Source: a virus (taxonomy: Duplodnaviria; Heunggongvirae; Uroviricota; Caudoviricetes). From it: 26,992 bases of DNA. The notes beneath the pieces are model-generated. The model did not search any database and was not told the origin of the DNA. It was given only the letters and a program-made list of their open reading frames with translations. The stretch lies in the IMG/VR virus record IMGVR_UViG_2778261667_000015, one strand, 5' to 3'. Positions 7,811 to 25,353 of this stretch are shown here, in pieces (the stretch's first letter is position 1; each line of letters opens with the position of its first letter). The position numbers were made by a program, and so were the translations under genes.

Positions 7811-7966
7811 TCAACTCAAGAGCCTTATTGCTGCTTCCAGAATTTCTTCTGAAGTAACATGCCGATCCGCGGCTACATAAATGACTTTATGATCTCCGGT
7901 CAGAGATGGAAACCCTGCGGCCATTACAGTAAGGTGTGTTTTTTCGCCATTTGGATATTCACGCAT
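7811..7966 (-). CDS. ynfN: YnfN-like small protein (51 aa)
   Basis: ORF 7811..8002; internal ATG at 7966 yields 51 aa (MREYPNGEKTHLTV...), the length and position of Qin ynfN between gnsB and cspI. Confidence 0.5.
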   Translation of the reverse strand: MREYPNGEKTHLTVMAAGFPSLTGDHKVIYVAADRHVTSEEILEAAIRLLS

Positions 7967-8313
7967 GATGGTGTTAACTCCAGTCATCGCTGGCACTACC
8001 ACTGCTGGTTCAGAGTTAAAAAAAACTATGATTTTTTTTCATGATGTTACCGTAGTATGTGAGTATCCATCGAATAGACACCAAGCAAAAAAGCTCCCGA
8101 AGGAGCCTTCATTTTCACTTTTTTAAATCCAACGACAGACGGCTGGCATTTAAGTATTGTGAAATATTATCAAATGTAATCATCATTGATTTACAAAAGA
8201 TACATTTTGCCCCGAAAGGATTCATGTCAGAAACATCAAAAGATGATGTTCTATACTGGGAACCATGACAACACGGGCATCTAAAGTGAATATGGTTTGT
8301 AATATTGTCTACC

Positions 8314-8526
8314 TCAAAGCGCCACTACATGAACAGCGGCAGGACCTTTAGGTCCGTTCTCAATACCAAATTCAACTTCCTGATTCTCAGTTAATGTTTT
8401 GAAATCGTTGCTCTGAATTGCTGAGAAATGGACAAACACATCTTTGCTGCCATCTTTCGGCGTGATGAAACCAAAACCTTTTTCAGGGTTAAACCATTTC
8501 ACTAAACCAGTCATTTTGTTAGACAT
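8314..8526 (-). CDS. cspI: Cold-shock protein, CspA family
   Basis: 70 aa [70 protein letters not shown] with RNP1/RNP2 motifs; position next to Rz as in Qin. Confidence 0.85.
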
Positions 8527-8888
8527 AATTATTACCTTTTGAAGAAATTAGCCCTTGGGCAGAATGGTCCGAAAAAAAATATCAGAGAGAAAAACCAACA
8601 AGGAAATCTCAAGAGGTACAAATAATAAAATTATAACAATGACTGCTTCAGATAAATTTGTAACAAACCAGAACACCATTAACGCATGATTAACCACCCA
8701 TAGCAAGGATTACTTTTGTAAAGAAAAACACAGCAATGAAAGAATAGCTTTATTTATTAATAAAACGTGTCATTCTGATTAAGACCTTTTATCTTACCCT
8801 TAAGATTTCAGGAATTTTGACTCATGGAAGAGTCCTTTTTATTTAAATTTTACATTCAGCGATGTAAATGTTCCGATTTAATATTACC

Positions 8889-9912
<1,024 letters not shown>

Positions 9913-10917: not shown

Positions 10918-11197
10918 AGATTGTGGTGCTTTTTGTGGGAGTCATCCACTTACGCACTTTGTTTTGCGATGCCAGCAGTTAGCTTCTGCTGTGAAACTAT
11001 TCATGCAGCAAACCTGCACTTCACCACAATGGTTAGCATACTTTTCCTGATTAAGATTTTGCCAAATATGCTGGCCATTGTTTCATGTATTGGACCTCCT
11101 TACTTTTTATTAAAGAGATCCAATATTCACTACTCTGTCCGTATCTCTACTCAGGCATCAGCCTTCTTCGTTATCGTATACAGACGAGCGATGAATT

Positions 11198-11413
11198 TTA
11201 ATCAGTAATGATGACATTTACTGCTGCAGGACCTTTAGCACCACTCTCTATAGAGAAGGTAACCTTTTGACCTTCAAATAAGGTTCGATAATTATCATTC
11301 TGAATCGCAGAAAAATGCACAAACACATCTTTACTACCATCAACAGGAGAAATAAAGCCGAAACCTTTATCAGCGTTAAACCATTTTACTAAACCAGTCA
11401 TTTTATTTGACAT
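11198..11413 (-). CDS. cspB: Cold-shock protein, CspA family
   Basis: 71 aa [71 protein letters not shown]. Confidence 0.85.
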
Positions 11414-11713
11414 TCTACATTCCTTAACTTGAGCCTTTCGGCATAAATGGTTTGTATAACAGAAACGACTTCGTACTTAATTGGAGAGACTCAAAGAAGG
11501 AATAAGTGAATAACACCTGAAATGAGAACTGCTTTAGTAAACTACTTCGTATATCGTCTGTTCTTCAAACCGACGCAATCATTAACGCATAGTTGAACAT
11601 ATGAAGCAATGTTTATTTTAGACATCCAGCCATCTTCAACCCCATCAAAAAACTATAGCTTTCTTCAGGAACGTGTGTATAGTGCGCCAAGTTATCAGTA
11701 TTAAGGAATTTTT

Positions 11714-12410: not shown

Positions 12411-12695
12411 CTTCTACATTACACACACCTTGTCTCCCCTTCTCGTCATATCTGCAAGACCGATATGCATGACGCAGTACATACGCTGAACTGCTTTATC
12501 CATCTGCATATTCTAGTGCTAAAGCGACTTCAGTAGCAGAAGCAAAATTCTGCTACTGTGCCAAACAGGAGTAAACGTCATTTTATGTAATGTTGATTGA
12601 GTGGTCATAGTATCACCTCAATAACAACTCTCCGCCCTATCATTGAAAGCATATCTGCTATAATTAAAAAGCCACTTAACATCAGGACTTCAAAC

Positions 12696-12881
12696 ATGAC
12701 TTCAAATCAATCTGAAAACGAAATAGTTAATACTGTCAAAAAATATGCATCATGTGCTGACGATGCTTTGCAGGGAGGCAAAGAAAACGTTAAAGATAAA
12801 TTTAGAAATTATCCACTGACTAGCGTGGTGGTTGCTCTAAGCATAGGGTTAACGCTTGGTTTTATTATTGGCAGAAAATAA
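12696..12881 (+). CDS. DUF883 (ElaB/YqjD/YgaM)-like C-tail-anchored small protein
   Basis: ORF 12597..12881; from ATG 12696 it gives 61 aa ending ...FRNYPLTSVVVALSIGLTLGFIIGRK, the characteristic DUF883 C-terminal anchor. Confidence 0.5.
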   Translation: MTSNQSENEIVNTVKKYASCADDALQGGKENVKDKFRNYPLTSVVVALSIGLTLGFIIGRK

Positions 12882-12939
12882 TCTTAAGCCTCCCATAAGT
12901 CGTACACAATCACATCTGCCAATTAATGTTCCATTAGTA

Positions 12940-12965
12940 AAAAACCACCTCCTGTGGAGGTGGTT
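12940..12965 (-). terminator. Rho-independent terminator, probably bidirectional
   Basis: ccacctcc-tgt-ggaggtgg stem with AAAAAA on the plus-strand 5' side (T-run on the minus strand); 53 nt downstream of the 39-aa minus ORF and 60 nt downstream of the plus-strand DUF883 gene. Confidence 0.5.
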
Positions 12966-13017
12966 TAAGGATAGCAACAAAACACAACCTACTTTAAACG
13001 GCTATATTCTGCTATAT

Positions 13018-13137
13018 CTAAATAATAGGATCTCTTTTATCATCCGGTGAAAAAGGGTTCAATGGTTGCCCCTCATCAGGACGCTCAACGGGCTCATCAT
13101 CAGGCTTACGGTCATCAAAATCTGGATGTTCTGACAT
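13018..13137 (-). CDS. Candidate 39-aa acidic, proline-rich small protein
   Basis: Codon-by-codon manual translation: MSEHPDFDDRKPDDEPVERPDEGQPLNPFSPDDKRDPII; GGGTGGA SD-like sequence upstream; terminator follows. Confidence 0.3.
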   Translation of the reverse strand: MSEHPDFDDRKPDDEPVERPDEGQPLNPFSPDDKRDPII

Positions 13138-13172
13138 ATTCCACCCTAGTATTTTTATGCAGGAAAGATTAT

Positions 13173-13280
13173 TTACTCTTTCCGGTTGTCTTTTTTATTA
13201 TCCTTACCCTTACTATCCTCATTGTTTTTATTCCTGTCATGAGATTTTTCATTTGAATCACTTACATATAATGTATTCAT
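13173..13280 (-). CDS. Candidate 35-aa highly charged, lysine-rich small protein
   Basis: Manual translation MNTLYVSDSNEKSHDRNKNNEDSKGKDNKKDNRKE; GGAG 7 nt upstream of the ATG; a perfect TATAAT sits ~45 nt further upstream on the same strand. Confidence 0.3.
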   Translation of the reverse strand: MNTLYVSDSNEKSHDRNKNNEDSKGKDNKKDNRKE

Positions 13281-13314
13281 GGGGACTCCAGTTTTTTAAC
13301 AGCACAATGCTGTA

Positions 13315-13360
13315 TCTGTAATTATAGATGCAATTAATCATTATGATATGTATGTTTCAT
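13315..13360 (-). promoter_or_regulatory. Putative sigma70 promoter for the small-ORF pair
   Basis: Minus strand reads ...attaattgcatcTATAATtacag...; the -35 is weak or undefined. Confidence 0.25.
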
Positions 13361-14041
13361 GCACAAATCAGAAACGCATCTAGTGCTTTAATTAATATGG
13401 ATTTTATTGCTGTAGATTTACAAAAATTTTCATAATTAACCAGCAATATAAGACAAATATCTCATAACATGAGGAAAATCAAGCTCATTTAAAGCAATTT
13501 ATAATTTTCATCCTACTGTTTTCCCTGCACTGCCAACACAAGTTTCATCGCAACACTCTGACAAGACACCTATAAAATCAGTTTCGTTATCACCTTAATT
13601 TTCTTCATGGGTAACAAACCGGTAATACATCGATAGCCAGATTTCCGGCGTAAGCCATTTATTTGCAGCCTGATTGATGCGCGTTACTGTTACCTCTTCC
13701 CTGCATCAGGATGGCTTCTCCAGATGATATGGTTAATCACACTGGAACATTCACGCATAACCGTTTCCTTCATATCCTGCCGTTTTAGCATGTCTTTTCC
13801 CCTTCTTGTTAATATCAATAACTAACACAAATCTAAAAAAGCCAGCAATGTAAAAAAACTGCATTCACGGCAACCATAATGGTTACCGTTCTGCACAAAG
13901 TTTATGTCCACAAAAAAACCACTCTGCGCGGCTTATTGATATTTTCCACAGGTATGCATATAAGGCTCATCATTGGAAAACTCTTTGCACGTTTCCTTAG
14001 AAAATACAATCGTTATGTCGCCATCGTTCGGTGAAAATCAT

Positions 14042-14794
14042 TTATCTCGTCACTTTTCTTAATTGCACCTCAGCATATGCTTCTTCCTGCCAGCACTTTG
14101 TAACCAGTTTATCAATGACATCTGCATATCCTTTGTACCACTGATAATCCGTCAGGTCTGGTACCAGCTTCTGGACATGACACCGCGCCAGTGTCGTTGG
14201 TAAACGACTAAACCGGTTTCCATTGCAACGCCCACAAACCTTATAAACAGGCGTGCTATGAAGCCGGGTTCTTTTTTCATCCAGGACAATACCTTTCCCC
14301 TTACACCCTCTGCACGCTGTGCTGACTTCTCCCTTACCATGGCAATGCTGACATAGTTCCTTCACCCACTCTTCCTTGATAACAGATTCCCCACTTCTGG
14401 AGTGTTTCACCACTTCGCGCAATACATTATGAAATCCAGTACCAGCACAATACTCACAGCGAGCCTTACTTGCCGCAGACCTGGAATAATCAGCAAAGGC
14501 AAAATTCACAAGGTAAGGGATGATCTGTAACCGGATTTCTTCACTCAATTTGTTCAATGTCGGATTATCCATTGCCATCGCGTAATTGAGCAGACCTTCA
14601 ATCGCAAACTGAGGATCCTGAACACCAACTTTTGCCAGGAATAAGGCAAAACCAAGCGGAGCTTTCGACTGCACCATCCCCTGCGCAGCCATCACATCTG
14701 TTATTGTTAAACCACCCGAGCCTGTCGCCGGTGCGTCATCACTCAATTTTGGAGATTTTGGGGAGTAATATTTTGGTAAAGCTTCAAGGTTCAT
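14042..14794 (-). CDS. quuQ: Late-gene antitermination protein Q
   Basis: 250 aa with multiple CxxC zinc-binding motifs (CEYCAGTG, CQHCHGKG, CRGCKGKG, CGRCNG) typical of Q antiterminators; ATG at 14794. Confidence 0.85.
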   Translation of the reverse strand: MNLEALPKYYSPKSPKLSDDAPATGSGGLTITDVMAAQGMVQSKAPLGFALFLAKVGVQDPQFAIEGLLNYAMAMDNPTLNKLSEEIRLQIIPYLVNFAFADYSRSAASKARCEYCAGTGFHNVLREVVKHSRSGESVIKEEWVKELCQHCHGKGEVSTACRGCKGKGIVLDEKRTRLHSTPVYKVCGRCNGNRFSRLPTTLARCHVQKLVPDLTDYQWYKGYADVIDKLVTKCWQEEAYAEVQLRKVTR

Positions 14795-16671: not shown

Positions 16672-16827
16672 TTACTCCTCAGGTTCGTAAGCTGTGAAGA
16701 CAGCGACCTCCGTCTGGCCGGTTCGGATTCGTACCTCGCAGAGGTCTTTCCTCGTTACCAGTGCCGTCACTATGACGGTTAAACAAATGACGATCAGGGC
16801 GATTAACATCGCCTTTTGCTGCTTCAT
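16672..16827 (-). CDS. hokD: Hok-family type I toxin (51 aa); the overlapping mok frame extends to 16884
   Basis: MKQQKAMLIALIVICLTVIVTALVTRKDLCEVRIRTGQTEVAVFTAYEPEE is a canonical Hok; the 70-aa ORF 16672..16884 is the mok-like upstream frame. Confidence 0.85.
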   Translation of the reverse strand: MKQQKAMLIALIVICLTVIVTALVTRKDLCEVRIRTGQTEVAVFTAYEPEE

Positions 16828-16859
16828 AGCCTGCTTCTCCTTGCCTTTCGGCACGTAAG

Positions 16860-16935
16860 AGGCTAACCTACATGTGTCTAGCATGAAATTGGCCTCAGAT
16901 TAATGTTAAGCGTCTTGCAGGACGCGTAATGTTAA
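16860..16935 (+). ncRNA. sok: Putative Sok antisense RNA region
   Basis: Placed antisense to the mok start/leader by analogy with plasmid R1 hok/sok; boundaries not resolved by eye. Confidence 0.25.
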
Positions 16936-17324
16936 CTGGGGCTTTTCTCTATCTGCCGTTGGTGTTCATGCCCGAGGCAGATAGCCTCAAGCACCCGCAG
17001 CCATTCTACTTAACTACCGTTACCTCGCCAATATGAAATCAATCAGTAAGGTGATCCATAAGAACAATAACAAGACAATAAATTGCCATTACAGCCACAA
17101 TAGCCAGCGTGCATTTGAGAACCAGCACATAAATCTCCTGCTCTTGACGTATACAGGCACTGATAAATATGTGTCTTCGTGCTCGTTACTTCAATACGTA
17201 AGCGTCAGTTGCGCGTAATCAAATCAGACAACCGACTTTAAACCAGGGACAAACAGCAGGTAAAATAATCAAACGTTATTTTAAGCCATATCATGGCTTC
17301 AAGATTTCCTCTAATTTCAACAAG

Positions 17325-17361
17325 ATGAGCAGGTCATTGCTTGCACTGATGACCTGCTCAT
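17325..17361. repeat. Perfect 13-bp inverted repeat with 11-nt spacer
   Basis: atgagcaggtcat-tgcttgcactg-atgacctgctcat; a second short palindrome aagccat-atc-atggctt lies at 17285-17301. Confidence 0.6.
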
Positions 17362-17442
17362 TAATCATGATTATTTGAAAATTAAGGTAGGCGTACTATA
17401 TATAGAAACACTGCTACGCTCCGTTGTTGGCATAATATAAAA

Positions 17443-18108
17443 TCATTCCTGCCCTTCTTTACCGTAGTGGAGTTGACCAATTTTGATTAGAGGGCGTCCC
17501 TGAGATTTGCGGTGTAGATTGGTATCGCGCAGTGAATACACGCAGCCACAATATTCCTGCTGATAGAATTGTTCGCGCTTGCTGATTTCAATCATGCGGG
17601 AAGAGCCGCCCTGCTTTCGCCAGTTATAATCCCAGTACACCATGCCCGGATAATACGCGACGGCTCGCCGTCCACAGTCGTTAACCTGCTGCATATTTTT
17701 CCAGCGTGAAATGCCCAGTGAGCTACTGATCACACTGAAACCATTTTCAGCGGCATACAGCGCAGTCCGCTCAAAACGCATGTCAAAACACATGGTACAA
17801 CGGATCCCTCGTTCAGGCTCCCATTCCATTCCTTTGGCTCGCTCAAACCAGTTGTCTGTGTCGTAATCAGCATCAATAAATGGCACGCCGTGTTGTTTAG
17901 CAAAGCGAATATTCTCATCCTTACGAATTAAATACTCTTTCTGAGGATGAATGTTCGGGTTGTAGAAAAAGATGGTGTAGTCGATTCCCGAGGCCTGAAG
18001 CGCCTCCATCACTTCACCGGAACATGGAGCACAGCAAGAGTGCAGTAATAGTTTTTTTGCCCCGTTTGGGAGCTCCAATTTGGGGCGTTTGAAATCAGCA
18101 ACAGTCAT
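17443..18108 (-). CDS. queH: QueH-like (DUF208) epoxyqueuosine reductase
   Basis: ORF 17443..18222 (GTG start); from ATG 18108: [30 protein letters not shown]...NPNIHP...[38 protein letters not shown]...QEYCGCVYS, matching the conserved blocks I recall for QueH. Confidence 0.6.
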
Positions 18109-18161
18109 AAATGTGTTTATGAGGTTCATGAAAATAGCAAAAAGTGTAGCATCAGAACGGG

Positions 18162-18464
18162 CTATCGGAAACAGATGTCTAAATCTGGTAATGTCTGCTT
18201 TTGATGCAAAGCAGACAACCACGGCAGCGCACGAAAATCAGCGATAATGTCGGGATTAATAATCGGGTGACGTCCATCACATAGCGAATGTTCCTCTTTC
18301 CTGATATCGCTAAATATCGACCATTCGTCATTCTTATCGAACCAGAGCATGCGACTGCCACAGCACATGTCGAGAATGGTAGCCGATGTACTCACAGCAT
18401 CACCTCCCGATAATTCCCCTGATAAAACGTCAGAACACGCTGCATAACTTCGCTCTTCCGGCAC
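18162..18464 (-). pseudogene. Possible N-terminal fragment of a SAM-dependent methyltransferase
   Basis: 100-aa ORF (GTG start) with a motif-I-like ILDMCCGSRMLWF, ending far short of a full methyltransferase; overlaps the neighbouring ORFs at both ends. Confidence 0.3.
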
Positions 18465-18814
18465 TCGCGACAGATTATGTTTAGACGACTGTCGTAGCGG
18501 CGTATTTCTCCATCAGGTAATGACCAGATAAGGTCCGGATCAACCACAGCAGGTTTCTTCACCTTTGCCCTCGAGAGTTTTTTGCGGGCGTTTTGCCAGT
18601 CCTTACGCGCCTGTTCAGACGGGAATAACCCGTAGCCGGAGTTGTATACATCGCCACTGGCTACCAGCTCTCTGACAAGAACGCTCATCAGATATCTAGT
18701 CGCACCTGTTTTAGCTTCCAGTTGCCGTAACGTCTCACGACCGCTCTGGCGCACGAGTTCCACCACCTGCCCTTTAATTTTTTCCCGCTCTTCTTGTGTA
18801 AAAACTTTTGCCAC
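18392..18814 (-). CDS. Hypothetical 140-aa protein downstream of the replication gene
   Basis: ORF MAKVFTQEEREKIKGQVVELVRQSGRETLRQLEAKTGATRYLM...; its 3' end overlaps the methyltransferase-fragment ORF, so the pair may be one frameshifted gene. Confidence 0.4.
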   Translation of the reverse strand: MAKVFTQEEREKIKGQVVELVRQSGRETLRQLEAKTGATRYLMSVLVRELVASGDVYNSGYGLFPSEQARKDWQNARKKLSRAKVKKPAVVDPDLIWSLPDGEIRRYDSRLNIICRECRKSEVMQRVLTFYQGNYREVML

Positions 18815-18854
18815 AAGTCCTCCTTAAAATTACCTCATGACCTGAAATCAACAT

Positions 18855-19820
18855 TTATCCTCTGAAACCAGGCGGAATTTCTGTATCCGGTTCAGAAATA
18901 TGATTAACACAACGCTGTACAGGTGAACGTCCCAGGCGGATGACCAGTTCGTCCCATTTTTCGCGGAGCTTTGACGGGCTCATGATGTTTTTTACCCAGA
19001 ATGGATCTCGCTGAACCCGACCAAACATTTCGCAAATTTGTCTGTGGCTTCTGCCATCCAGCATCCGCATTGTGCGCACGTCATTGGCCCAGGCAGTCCA
19101 GTTAGGCTCTTTTGGTCGCATGATCTCGCCATCATCACTGGCTGCCTGTTCGTAGAGACCCACGATCCGCCCCCAGATCCACTGCGCACACGCCAAATCC
19201 TCCCTGCTACCCCACTGGCGTTTTTTCGCACTAAACACAACCGCGTCGGAGTTCCGGGTTAAAAAATCCTGTTCAGTCGTCTGCGGGTCCGGTTGCGAAG
19301 CTTCCGGACGAAAAGTGTTTTTATTCTCTGTAGTAATCTCTGTTGTATTCTCTGTAAGATCATCAGGCCATTTTGACCCGATGACATTGGATCGTTTTGA
19401 ACCAATGGAGCGTTTCATTTTGACCTCTTCCATCGTGTCATTTTGACCTGATGGAGCGGCGCATTTTGAACTGATGGATTCGCTCAATTTGCCACCATCT
19501 AAAAGATCGCTCCCGTAGTTGATCGTGTAGAAATTGGTCATGTCGCGCTTTGATTTATTGAGCTTTTCGCAACGCAAAAGCCCCAGCGTTTTCAGACTTG
19601 CAAACGCGCGCTTTAACGTTGACTCTGACCAGAACGGGAACTGCGCCAGCCATTGTTCCGTTGTGTTGTAAATCCAGCGAACACCATCACATTCCATGCC
19701 GGAATTGGTATCTCTCAACCAGTAATGCAGTTGCTGCAACACAATGGCTTCGTTTAAGCCAATCTTCATCGCAAGCTGTGTGTTTATAACCAGTGGGCGT
19801 TCAGCAAAAAGAAGGCTCAT
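18855..19820 (-). CDS. Replication initiation protein (lambda O-like / replisome organiser) with ori inside the gene
   Basis: ORF 18855..19874 (TTG start; ATG at 19820). N-terminal winged-helix-like region (LVINTQLAMKIGLNEAIVLQQLHYWLRD...) and iterons within the coding sequence as for lambda O. Confidence 0.6.
   Translation of the reverse strand: MSLLFAERPLVINTQLAMKIGLNEAIVLQQLHYWLRDTNSGMECDGVRWIYNTTEQWLAQFPFWSESTLKRAFASLKTLGLLRCEKLNKSKRDMTNFYTINYGSDLLDGGKLSESISSKCAAPSGQNDTMEEVKMKRSIGSKRSNVIGSKWPDDLTENTTEITTENKNTFRPEASQPDPQTTEQDFLTRNSDAVVFSAKKRQWGSREDLACAQWIWGRIVGLYEQAASDDGEIMRPKEPNWTAWANDVRTMRMLDGRSHRQICEMFGRVQRDPFWVKNIMSPSKLREKWDELVIRLGRSPVQRCVNHISEPDTEIPPGFRG
19323..19500. repeat. Replication origin: six ~12-bp iterons at ~23-bp spacing plus three TCTCTGT repeats
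   Basis: cattttgacc(c) and close variants at 19369, 19392, 19415, 19439, 19461 and 19485; attctctgta-like repeats at 19323-19360. Confidence 0.6.
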
Positions 19821-20322
19821 AATTCCATCCAGCTTTTTGTTGGTATTGCTGTCGATACGCAAGCTTGAAAGCAATTGCTTTTTCTATAAGTTCGTCAGTT
19901 TCACGATCTACAACGGCAGGATCTGCAAAAAGCAGTCCGGACTCCACCACATCGCCATATTCTTTATTTAACCCAGCGATCATGTACGTAATGCTCTTTC
20001 CGTCACTAATTTCACGATACAACCTGAAATCACTAATCCGGATAGCCTCCATAATTGCAGGCGCTAGCGCTGTGAACTTTTCACGCTTATCCCTGGTGTC
20101 GATAGCCTTCCAGCGTTCAAATATCTTCACTCGATTAACGCTAAGCGCTCGCTGATCAACCGCGCCACCTTCATATGTGACACGCTGAACATCGATGTTC
20201 GGGCGCTCTTTCAAAGCCCAGAATGCTTCAGTGATTAATATCGTCGCCTGCTCCTGTGTCATTCCTGGTCGACATATCCAGGCATCCAGAGCCTCACGAG
20301 CCTGTTCAGGAGTGATTTTCAT
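19801..20322 (-). CDS. Hypothetical 173-aa protein between the cro-like gene and the replication gene
   Basis: ATG at 20322 overlaps the dicC 3' end; no family recognised; occupies the cII / YdaT-equivalent position. Confidence 0.45.
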   Translation of the reverse strand: MKITPEQAREALDAWICRPGMTQEQATILITEAFWALKERPNIDVQRVTYEGGAVDQRALSVNRVKIFERWKAIDTRDKREKFTALAPAIMEAIRISDFRLYREISDGKSITYMIAGLNKEYGDVVESGLLFADPAVVDRETDELIEKAIAFKLAYRQQYQQKAGWNYEPSFC

Positions 20323-22184: not shown

Positions 22185-22242
22185 TTTCTGGTGACGTTTG
22201 GCGGTATCAGTTTTACTCCGTGACTGCTCTGCCGCCGTTTTT
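22185..22242 (+). ncRNA. dicF: DicF small RNA
   Basis: tttctggtgacgtttggcggtatcagttttactccgtgactgctctgccgccgttttt matches the DicF sequence as I recall it, including the 3' terminator hairpin and U-tail. Confidence 0.85.
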
Positions 22243-22881: not shown

Positions 22882-25353
22882 ATGAGTAAAGTCTTTATTT
22901 GCGCCGCTATTCCTGACGAACTGGCAACAAGGGAAGAAGGCGCTGTGGCTGTAGCCACAGCCATTGAAGCTGGCGACGAACGCCGTGCTCGAGCAAAATT
23001 TCACTGGCAATTCCTGGAACATTATCCGGCTGCTCAGGACTGCGCTTATAAATTTATTGTCTGCGAGGATAAACCTGGCATACCCCGCCCTGCCCTCGAT
23101 TCATGGGATGCTGAATATATGCAGGAAAACCGCTGGGATGAGGAGTCTGCTTCTTTTGTCCCGGTTGAGACTGAATCCGATCCGATGAACGTCACTTTTG
23201 ACAAGCTGGCCCCTGAAGTACAGAACGCTGTCATGGTTAAGTTCGACACATGTGAAAACATCACCGTTGATATGGTTATTAGCGCACAGGAATTGTTGCA
23301 GGAAGACATGGCAACATTCGACGGACATATCGTTGAAGCGTTGATGAAAATGCCAGAAGTTAACGCCATGTATCCGGAGCTTAAGTTGCACGCCATTGGG
23401 TGGGTTAAGCATAAATGTATTCCTGGTGCTAAATGGCCCGAAATTCAGGCAGAGATGCGCATCTGGAAAAAACGTCGCGAAGGTGAACGCAAGGAAACCG
23501 GAAAATACACGTCTGTTGTTGATCTCGCCCGCGCCAGAGCCAATCAACAGTACACTGAAAATTCAACAGGAAAAATCAGCCCGGTCATTGCTGCCATTCA
23601 TCGCGAATACAAGCAGACATGGAAAACACTGGATGACGAACTGGCCTACGCTCTCTGGCCTGGTGATGTGGATGCCGGAAACATTGACGGCAGCATCCAT
23701 CGCTGGGCAAAAAAAGAAGTTATCGACAACGACCGCGAAGACTGGAAGCGTATCTCGGCATCAATGCGCAAACAGCCTGATGCCCTTCGCTACGACCGCC
23801 AGACTATTTTTGGCCTTGTCCGTGAGCGTCCGATCGACATTCACAAAGATCCCGTAGCACTGAACAAATATATCTGCGAATACCTGACGACAAAGGGCGT
23901 GTTTGAGAATGAAGAAACAGACCTGAGCACTGTTGATGTTCTCCAGTCATCAGAAACACAAACTGATGCAGTGGAAACTGAGGTATCTGATATCCCAAAA
24001 AATGAAACCGCGCCGGAAGCTGAACCATCTGTAGAGCGTGAGGGGCCGTTCTATTTCCTCTTCGCAGATAAGGACGGAGAAAAATACGGTCGCGCAAACA
24101 AACTTTCTGGTCTGGATAAGGCACTGGCTGCTGGCGCCACTGAAATCACAAAAGAAGAATATTTTGCCCGAAAAAATGGCACATACACGGGCTTACCGCA
24201 AAATGTAGATACCGCTGAAGATTCAGAACAACCAGAGCCGATAAAAGTTACCGCTGACGAAGTAAACAAAATTATGCAGGCAGCCAATATCAGCCAGCCT
24301 GACGCCGATAAGTTGCTTGCTGCATCACGTGGTGAATTTGTTGAAGGGATTAGTGACCCGAATGATCCGAAATGGGTTAAGGGGATCCAGACCCGCGATT
24401 CTGTGAACCAGAACCAGCATGAATCGGAACGGAACTACCAAAAAGCGGAACAAAACAGTCCAAATGCGTTACAAAACGAGCCAGAAACGAAACAGCCTGA
24501 ACCAGTGGCGCAACAGGAAGTGGAAAAAGTCTGCACCGCCTGCGGTCAGACCGGCGGCGGCAACTGCCCTGATTGTGGCGCGGTGATGGGCGACGCAACA
24601 TACCAAGAAACATTCGATGAAGAGTATCAGGTTGAAGTTCAGGAAGATGATCCGGAGGAAATGGAAGGCGCTGAACATCCACACAAGGAGAACACTGGCG
24701 GCAATCAGCATCACAATAGCGATAATGAAACTGGCGAGACGGCAGATCACCCAATTAAGGTGAACGGTCATCACGAAATCACATCCACCAGCAGGACGTG
24801 TGACCATCTAATGATCGACCTTGAAACCATGGGAAAAAATCCTGATGCCCCGATCATCTCAATAGGTGCAATATTTTTCGATCCGCAAACCGGAGATATG
24901 GGACCGGAATTTAGTAAGACTATCGATCTGGAAACTGCTGGCGGAGTCATTGATCGGGACACCATTAAATGGTGGCTTAAGCAATCACGCGAAGCGCAAT
25001 CTGCCATTATGACCGATGAAATCCCGTTAGATGATGCACTGTTACAATTGCGGGAATTTATCGACGAAAACTCCGGTGAATTTTTTGTTCAGGTCTGGGG
25101 AAATGGAGCCAACTTCGACAACACGATTTTGCGCCGTTCATACGAACGGCAGGGGATCCCCTGCCCGTGGCGTTACTACAACGATCGCGATGTACGCACA
25201 ATCGTTGAGCTGGGGAAAGCCATAGACTTCGATGCCAGAACGGCTATTCCATTCGAAGGTGAGCGCCATAATGCACTTGATGACGCCCGTTACCAGGCAA
25301 AATACGTTTCAGTTATCTGGCAAAAACTGATCCCGAGTCAGGCTGATTCTTAA
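22882..25353 (+). CDS. ydfE: YdfE-like large protein: N-terminal domain of unknown function, acidic linkers, central zinc ribbon, C-terminal DnaQ-like DEDDh 3'-5' exonuclease domain
   Basis: 823-aa ORF; C-terminus carries Exo I (MIDLETMG), Exo II (VWGNGANFDNTIL) and Exo III (HNALDDARY) motifs; CTACGQTGGGNCPDCG zinc ribbon near residue 550. Confidence 0.7.
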   Translation: MSKVFICAAIPDELATREEGAVAVATAIEAGDERRARAKFHWQFLEHYPAAQDCAYKFIVCEDKPGIPRPALDSWDAEYMQENRWDEESASFVPVETESDPMNVTFDKLAPEVQNAVMVKFDTCENITVDMVISAQELLQEDMATFDGHIVEALMKMPEVNAMYPELKLHAIGWVKHKCIPGAKWPEIQAEMRIWKKRREGERKETGKYTSVVDLARARANQQYTENSTGKISPVIAAIHREYKQTWKTLDDELAYALWPGDVDAGNIDGSIHRWAKKEVIDNDREDWKRISASMRKQPDALRYDRQTIFGLVRERPIDIHKDPVALNKYICEYLTTKGVFENEETDLSTVDVLQSSETQTDAVETEVSDIPKNETAPEAEPSVEREGPFYFLFADKDGEKYGRANKLSGLDKALAAGATEITKEEYFARKNGTYTGLPQNVDTAEDSEQPEPIKVTADEVNKIMQAANISQPDADKLLAASRGEFVEGISDPNDPKWVKGIQTRDSVNQNQHESERNYQKAEQNSPNALQNEPETKQPEPVAQQEVEKVCTACGQTGGGNCPDCGAVMGDATYQETFDEEYQVEVQEDDPEEMEGAEHPHKENTGGNQHHNSDNETGETADHPIKVNGHHEITSTSRTCDHLMIDLETMGKNPDAPIISIGAIFFDPQTGDMGPEFSKTIDLETAGGVIDRDTIKWWLKQSREAQSAIMTDEIPLDDALLQLREFIDENSGEFFVQVWGNGANFDNTILRRSYERQGIPCPWRYYNDRDVRTIVELGKAIDFDARTAIPFEGERHNALDDARYQAKYVSVIWQKLIPSQADS

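Follow-up and report, generated by a model that had tools for sequence, protein, structure and literature searches.

A QueH-type epoxyqueuosine reductase gene carried as cargo by Qin-like prophages of Escherichia coli

Here, we describe a gene of the epoxyqueuosine reductase family QueH on the minus strand (positions 17443-18108) of a 26,992-nucleotide stretch of viral DNA (Caudoviricetes; IMG/VR record IMGVR_UViG_2778261667_000015), the whole of which is called the window below. As judged from sequence comparisons and a structure model, its product is probably a working QueH that was captured from an enterobacterial chromosome and would provide Qin/Rac-type prophages with a cobalamin-independent route from epoxyqueuosine (oQ) to queuosine (Q). 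In E. coli, Q synthesis ends with a step that requires cobamide, for which QueG was subsequently recognised as the enzyme (PMC4646009, citing Frey 1988 and Miles 2011), whereas QueH is iron-dependent and cobalamin-independent (PMC9508795, PMC13443448).

Identification of the window protein as QueH

The gene and the lines of evidence for its identity are as follows:

17443..18108, minus strand: coding sequence of queH (epoxyqueuosine reductase QueH, 221 amino acids plus stop); open reading frame (ORF), motifs, Pfam, PDB and Foldseek

The ORF starts with an ATG at 18108 and has its stop codon ending at 17443, giving 221 codons on the minus strand. It is nested within a longer, mechanically called ORF with a GTG start at 18222, and the record of the isolated phage HannyBb starts the gene at an in-frame ATG at 18129, seven codons further upstream; an alignment with 29 homologs favours the start at 18108. 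An original prediction, made from the letters of the window alone, had described a minus-strand ORF with four QueH motifs, and the ORF was found exactly at 17443..18108 with 4/4 motifs located: namely, NPNIHP at residues 50-55, QEYCGC at residues 184-189, and the other two at residues 20-30 and 97-111.

The assignment to DUF208/PF02677 made in that prediction was borne out by a strong, full-length profile match, in which residues 20-194 cover positions 1-174 of the 175 in the Pfam QueH profile (PF02677; 220.2 bits, E = 2.7e-65) and the score stands far above the gathering cut-off of 23.5 bits. When the PDB was searched by sequence, the sole match was QueH from Thermotoga maritima (7lc5, E = 8e-22, residues 20-196), the one species with a QueH crystal structure, which was reportedly described by Li et al. 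in 2021 (Biochemistry 60:3152, cited in PMC13443448; PDB 7LC5/7LC7/9DEU). An AlphaFold2 model of the window QueH, built from 30 sequences, had a mean predicted local distance difference test score (pLDDT) of 80 and a predicted template modelling score (pTM) of 0.80. In a comparison with the PDB by Foldseek, ranks 1-5 were all occupied by T. maritima QueH (7lc7, 7lc5, 9d86, 9dco, and 9deu) with a probability of 1.00, a target-normalised template modelling (TM) score of 0.81-0.83, and a root mean square deviation of 2.7-3.9 Å; the matches below these five were far weaker and were distant PP-loop enzymes (e.g., TtuA, TilS, and LarE). The comparison with QueH structures that had been proposed as a check thus placed the solved T. 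maritima enzyme first, and the window protein has every sequence and fold feature of QueH that we tested.

Conserved residues were then compared in an alignment of 47 sequences, composed of the window QueH, T. maritima QueH, and 45 diverse, domain-spanning representatives (37-74% identity) drawn from the 4,745 family members that an exhaustive HMMER search gave at E <= 0.001; the sample of 47 leans toward relatives of the window QueH. Six cysteine residues, Cys25, 26, 104, 107, 187, and 189 (CC...CxxC...CxC), were invariant in 47/47, and their equivalents in T. maritima are Cys9, 10, 87, 90, 169, and 171, as numbered from the alignment. The original prediction had expected “Cys/Asp ligands” to be kept; the conserved cysteine positions are indeed retained, but the equivalent of Asp13 in T. 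maritima is Cys29 in the window QueH (the residue after CCAP, encoded at ~18022-18024 on the minus strand). This position is Cys in 46/47 of the aligned sequences, a proportion to be read with the lean of the sample toward relatives of the window QueH, and in all of the 120 close homologs, while Asp at CCAP+1 was found only in T. maritima among the 47 (Asp13, changed by D13N in PDB 9DCO). At residue 29, therefore, the window QueH appears from the alignment to follow the sampled norm with T. maritima as the outlier, and mechanistic conclusions based on Asp13 may not carry over directly to most of the QueH family.

Distribution and origin of queH in E. coli

Among 5,426 complete E. coli genomes, queH was found at 80% or more of its length in 985 and with any match in 1,047 (~19%), and most of the carriers have an allele 90-95% identical in DNA. 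The carriers include O157:H7, O104:H4 C227-11, and ST131, and the exact arrangement of the window was found in about 72 genomes, REL606 and E. coli C among them. Every E. coli record that we sampled annotates the gene as “epoxyqueuosine reductase QueH” in RefSeq. Chromosomal queG was, in contrast, found in 5,426/5,426 genomes, including the queH carrier REL606, where it is intact beside queH; this agrees with the earlier statement that E. coli relies on the B12-dependent QueG. Because queG is present in every E. coli genome, the prophage queH is always an addition and never a replacement.

The K-12 knockout of queG accumulates oQ (PMC4646009), which is consistent with K-12 having no second reductase. 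Indeed, the Qin prophage of K-12 has relBE, flxA, and ydfV at the equivalent place without queH, while REL606 (E. coli B) retains the same queH locus as the window in a degraded, Qin-like prophage that is ridden with insertion sequences (IS) and located beside rspB. When BL21(DE3) (NC_012971.2) was compared with REL606, furthermore, we found a clean deletion of 1,361 bp, equivalent to 17154-18517 of the window (deletion point, locus 9549-9550; REL606 locus 17855-19215). This deletion takes queH, a methyltransferase remnant, and the 3' end of a DUF977 gene, the coding sequence of which is 360 nt in BL21(DE3) versus 423, and its flanks are 100% identical; REL606 and BL21(DE3) are therefore a natural pair with and without a second epoxyqueuosine reductase gene. 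REL606 is the ancestor of the long-term evolution experiment, which is reportedly run in B12-free minimal medium. As a separate observation, the Q-to-lysis interval of the REL606 prophage (locus 12420-14640) has an IS3-disrupted gene annotated as “YbgA family”/“2-thiouracil desulfurase family”; this further cargo gene, also related to nucleobases, is not in the window.

In IMG/VR, at least 191 viral contigs have queH, and HannyBb was the only convincing isolated phage with queH in 50,697 GenBank phage records. The other “phage” records with QueH were short metagenomic fragments or 280-380-kb records resembling bacterial DNA and were set aside. QueH homologs are present in “Acinetobacter phage MD-2021a” (CAKLQH020000001.1/CAKLQF020000001.1, 328-378 kb) and “Staphylococcus phage SA 1306 Kay” (OR844989.1, 283 kb); because of their size and annotation, these records look bacterial or prophage-containing and are not countable as phage-borne QueH. 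On E. coli plasmids, the matches to queH were frameshifted fragments only (NZ_CP148358.1, locus 7911-8285, and 61 other plasmid places), and these are divergent (69-75% in nucleotides), lie close to a RepB replicon and IS elements, and are a relic of an independent acquisition.

Outside E. coli, the window QueH comes closest to the chromosomally encoded enzymes of Erwinia, Gibbsiella, Providencia, Proteus, and Photorhabdus, with 80-87% amino acid identity. In Providencia, the gene has tmcA/DUF441 on one side and an ECF transporter/purC region on the other, and an Erwinia-like genome has queH between purL and glrK-glnB-hmp-glyA. Given these housekeeping contexts, the prophage queH would be a housekeeping gene captured from an enterobacterial chromosome.

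Purifying selection on queH

Between the window allele and the allele of the ST131/O157:H7 prophages (WP_000150294.1), we counted 31 synonymous and 8 non-synonymous substitutions, which correspond to a synonymous rate (dS) of 0.27, a non-synonymous rate (dN) of 0.015, and a dN/dS of 0.057. This low ratio shows that the QueH protein has been under strong purifying selection since the two prophage alleles split.

This result bears on the idea that queH, once taken from a host, is merely carried along without selection in a region prone to recombination and is useless to both phage and host. In favour of such a passenger, queH duplicates a function present in every E. coli, is carried by only ~19% of the genomes, and was lost by a simple deletion in BL21(DE3), and its divergent copies on plasmids are frameshifted fragments. 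A dN/dS of 0.057 at a dS of 0.27 nonetheless means strong purifying selection after the alleles diverged, and the catalytic-site residues are all intact; also, the full length of the query was covered in every sampled prophage or chromosomal copy, and the position of the gene is kept across prophages with different replication modules. We hence consider a useless passenger to be improbable and a maintained, working QueH to be the better explanation of the two.

The prophage locus

The window comprises an intact, Qin-family lambdoid phage, the genes of which are, in order, a ClpP-type head protease, the portal, the large terminase, lysis genes, and the antiterminator Q; after Q, DUF968, hok/sok, queH, DUF977, an O-like replication gene, and a YdaT-like gene; and then cro/cI-type regulators, DicF, a large exonuclease, and the integrase. 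When read in the direction of transcription, the early-right order is the replication gene, DUF977, the methyltransferase remnant, queH, hok/sok, DUF968, and Q, all on the minus strand. The elements around queH are as follows:

18855..19874, minus strand: O-like replication initiator gene; “replication initiation O-like protein” in HannyBb and “DNA replication protein O” in PhiR42_1
18392..18814, minus strand: DUF977 gene (140 amino acids), the usual upstream neighbour of queH; PF06163, E = 1.8e-29
18162..18395, minus strand: remnant of an S-adenosylmethionine (SAM)-dependent methyltransferase gene, N-terminal part only; “incomplete; missing C-terminus” in RefSeq REL606
18109..18223, minus strand: leader of ~115 nt travelling with queH; boundaries of the blastn block
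17062..17436, minus strand: AT-rich spacer from queH to hok/sok, 375 bp, 39% GC; homology breakpoints and GC content
16672..16996, minus strand: hokD/mok toxin ORF and sok antisense RNA; PF01848 Hok/gef, E = 3e-23, and Rfam RF01794, 115 bits
14042..14794, minus strand: antiterminator Q gene, the end of the nin-equivalent region; PF03589, E = 4e-50

Both the Qin-like nature of the prophage and the location of queH between the replication gene and Q, as originally predicted, are correct in light of this gene order and the comparison with K-12. The neighbours named there were recognised as well: namely, the methyltransferase fragment is truncated, the 140-residue gene is DUF977, and all are co-oriented with the replication gene. 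Neither the O-like replication gene nor the methyltransferase remnant had a match in Pfam; the latter matches the methyltransferase gene of phage PhiR42_1 at 83% in nucleotides and is missing from the ST131/O157 version of the queH locus. HannyBb aligns with 94% of the window's first 25 kb (98.4% identity) and has the same queH gene, labelled only as a “hypothetical protein”.

A survey of 80 IMG/VR loci suggests that this surrounding is well kept. The nearest recognised upstream match was DUF977 or the methyltransferase remnant in 75 of the 80, hokD was found at 700 nt or less downstream of queH in 67, and in the 14 of these loci for which the flanks were printed, every flank shown was co-oriented with queH. 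Replication modules vary, with the O-like gene in the window and genes for a helix-turn-helix (HTH) protein and an ATP-binding protein in ST131/O157, and queH is therefore tied to the slot between DUF977 and hok and not to one replication module. Some prophages carry a restriction-modification module inserted after queH.

As for the unit that moves, the homology block common to the ST131/O157 prophages covers 17437-18223 of the window (~93% identical by blastn) with both flanks being different; the mobile unit appears to be composed of the queH ORF, the leader of ~115 nt, and 6 nt downstream. The leader is conserved among the prophage alleles, and when compared with the upstream regions of chromosomal queH in Erwinia and Providencia, it showed no similarity; a native promoter was therefore not co-captured from those lineages. 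As a whole, the leader folds no better than its shuffled versions (z = -1.36). A hairpin at ~18210-18235 with a perfect 10-bp stem was considered as a functional element and rejected, its stem being degraded in the ST131/O157 allele. The 375-bp spacer, which is missing from the ST131/O157 locus type, contains another hairpin at 17325-17361 (minus strand) with a perfect 13-bp stem (z = -2.79; 0/200 shuffles fold as well). This would be a possible terminator of transcription after queH, with its 11-nt loop and weak U-tail falling outside the criteria of our terminator scan. The HannyBb record calls small plus-strand ORFs in this spacer.

The surroundings of queH also allow us to weigh a target other than host tRNA: that is, a 7-deazaguanine modification of phage DNA, or an anti-defence change at the wobble base by which an anticodon nuclease, such as colicin E5, is evaded. 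The slot of queH holds restriction-modification modules in other prophages and adjoins a toxin-antitoxin locus, and phages do use 7-deazaguanine chemistry on DNA (PMC6884629). Nevertheless, a Pfam scan of the window ORFs found no DpdA/TGT-like transglycosylase and no FolE, QueC, QueD, or QueE, making a role in DNA modification unlikely because the transglycosylase and the genes for preQ0 are not present. Neither oQ nor Q has been reported in DNA in the literature searched (PMC6884629), and the protein, 80-90% identical to housekeeping tRNA enzymes, shows no sign of divergence toward a new substrate. Among the explanations considered, we regard such another target as the least probable. No tRNA genes that might link to QueH were found in the window.

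Several other features were noted in the window. The DUF977 gene is among the most constant genes of the queH region, has incompatible names across records (“LygF”, “Ren-like exclusion protein”, and “DUF977 family protein”), and apparently has no function assigned. The sok antitoxin RNA was located at 16822-16996 (minus strand, 115 bits) and the DicF antisense small RNA at 22186-22237 (plus strand, 72.5 bits), which together confirm the kinship to Qin. The cspA thermoregulator RNA (RF01766) was matched twice at full length on the minus strand, at 11151-11574 and 8287-8672 (160 and 113 bits), marking cspB/cspI-type cold-shock genes on the prophage, like those of Qin in K-12. The 823-residue early-left “exonuclease” (22882-25353, plus strand), annotated as exodeoxyribonuclease VIII-like in records, carries at its C-terminus a 3'-5' exoribonuclease domain of the Rv2179c-like type (PF16473, E = 2.4e-67).

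Proposed function and expression

We propose that the prophage QueH, as an iron-sulfur and cobalamin-independent enzyme, would remove the epoxide oxygen of oQ at wobble position 34 and thereby yield Q in tRNA-Asp, -Asn, -His, and -Tyr. The gene is a stable cargo in a fixed slot of Qin/Rac-type prophages, located after the replication and DUF977 genes and before hok/sok, DUF968, and Q. Given that every E. coli has QueG, the prophage enzyme would add a second route independent of the QueG cofactor and may be of advantage by completing Q when cobalamin or the activity of QueG is limiting. As part of the physiological rationale, E. coli tRNA has oQ under aerobic conditions and Q under anaerobic ones (PMC7466049). 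Since queH runs in the same direction as the early-right operon and has no separate promoter that we could detect, most of its transcription probably starts at the phage early promoter, and a repressed lysogen would express it weakly at most.

Several observations weigh against this proposal. Between 19000 and 18108, a consensus scan of the minus strand found no sigma-70-like promoter; the region has 3 promoter-like sites, no more than the 3.4 expected by shuffling, and no Shine-Dalgarno sequence was evident upstream of queH on reading the sequence. Expression of queH in the repressed lysogen is doubtful for these reasons. QueH is itself an Fe-S enzyme, furthermore, and could be as oxygen-sensitive as QueG. 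In the literature searched, no phenotype was reported for oQ versus Q in E. coli, and BL21(DE3) has lost queH without known consequence. Also, no family was found at E <= 0.01 when the window QueH was scanned against NCBIfam. Since the evidence from Pfam, PDB, and the fold agrees, we treat this miss as a gap in the library and not as evidence against membership of QueH; RefSeq uses the QueH name despite the miss, so that its basis for the name must be something else.

As a promoter candidate, a weak, extended -10-like sequence (TGCTACACT) with a poor -35 was seen by eye and is not claimed as a promoter. A lambdoid “moron” is a cargo transcribed autonomously, between a promoter and a terminator that belong to it; queH was considered as such a unit and rejected, as no promoter site was found and the downstream hairpin is present in the window allele only. 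An accessory gene of the nin region, embedded in an operon, is the better description of queH.

This embedding could also be taken to mean that the same enzyme benefits the phage: namely, queH would be expressed only after induction or infection and convert the oQ-tRNA of the host to Q-tRNA, which would raise the speed or accuracy of phage translation, while the lysogen gains nothing. This alternative overlaps our proposal and differs from it only in timing and beneficiary. In its favour, queH lies inside the early-right operon and in the same orientation, between the replication genes and Q, in nearly all loci examined; its own promoter was not detected, its leader was not picked up together with the gene from the promoter region of a chromosome, and a viable isolated phage, HannyBb, carries it. 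Among Q-decoded NAU/NAC codons, however, the fraction of NAU in the host was 0.52, and neither late phage genes (0.57, p = 0.11) nor early ones (0.55, p = 0.28) differed from it significantly; in the literature searched, oQ and Q are not documented to differ functionally in decoding, and queH is, furthermore, intact in the degraded REL606 prophage, where a lytic cycle is unlikely. Of the two benefits put forward in the original prediction, namely, cobalamin-free Q for the lysogen or tuned translation for the phage, either may apply; a benefit to the phage only is the less likely reading.

A stronger form of this proposal is that queH is expressed enough in lysogens to free about one fifth of E. 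coli strains from B12 for Q; we put it forward only tentatively and would not quite expect it to hold. If it is true, similar strains would differ in the wobble state of their tRNA (oQ versus Q) by their prophage content, including laboratory strains (REL606/E. coli C with queH versus K-12/BL21(DE3) without), and a prophage would encode a change in the tRNA epitranscriptome of its host. In any case, QueH is a common prophage cargo in E. coli, including ST131, O157:H7, and O104:H4, in every case in addition to QueG, and its strain-dependent presence could confound studies on tRNA modification.

Comparison with known systems

The QueH family has been characterised in both reaction and structure, and the protein is already named QueH in RefSeq; in terms of mechanism, therefore, the window QueH is already known and ordinary. 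Its aspect as a prophage cargo is under-reported rather than unknown. In the literature searched, we found no paper discussing a prophage-borne QueH (prophage, lysogen, lambdoid, BL21), and the E. coli papers found on epoxyqueuosine reductase refer to chromosomal queG or have an untyped “epoxyqueuosine reductase” entry in a table. A survey of viral 7-deazaguanine genes in 2019 found no homologs of QueA, QueG, or QueH in the viruses analysed (PMC6884629), and the window would, if our reading is true, provide a case of the phage-borne QueH that was reported absent there.

Compared with T. maritima QueH, the window QueH belongs to the same Pfam family and fold, with 31% identity and a TM score of 0.82-0.83 across the entire T. 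maritima chain, and has identical CC, CxxC, and CxC motifs. It differs in having Cys29 instead of Asp13 after CCAP, which matters when the mechanism proposed from the T. maritima enzyme is generalised, and also in extending past the aligned region by ~25 residues (197-221) that form a basic C-terminal tail. The chromosomal QueH proteins of Enterobacterales are much closer, with the same length and all invariant residues shared in addition to the 80-87% identity; nonetheless, their genes lie among housekeeping genes and have unrelated upstream regions, whereas the window copy lies in a lambdoid early operon and in a genome that contains QueG.

E. coli QueG performs the same reaction, from oQ34-tRNA to Q34-tRNA (PMC4646009, PMC9508795), as would be expected of the window QueH. 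The two proteins are, however, non-homologous, with B12 as the cofactor of QueG, and queG is a core gene (5,426/5,426) while queH is an accessory one (~19%). The possession of both reductases in one genome has a likeness in Staphylococcus aureus, which has QueG and QueH side by side as redundant enzymes that differ in cofactor and expression; this was read as a response to differing availability of the cofactors (PMC13443448). Both are in the organism's own set of tRNA-modifying enzymes in S. aureus (PMC13443448), whereas the second enzyme in E. coli is supplied by a prophage and varies among strains. Finally, the phage 7-deazaguanine clusters (FolE/QueD/QueE/QueC/DpdA; PMC6884629) are alike in being phage-borne genes of the queuosine/archaeosine pathway, but they make preQ0-type bases for phage DNA, while the window has a lone, tRNA-specific gene of the late pathway without a transglycosylase.

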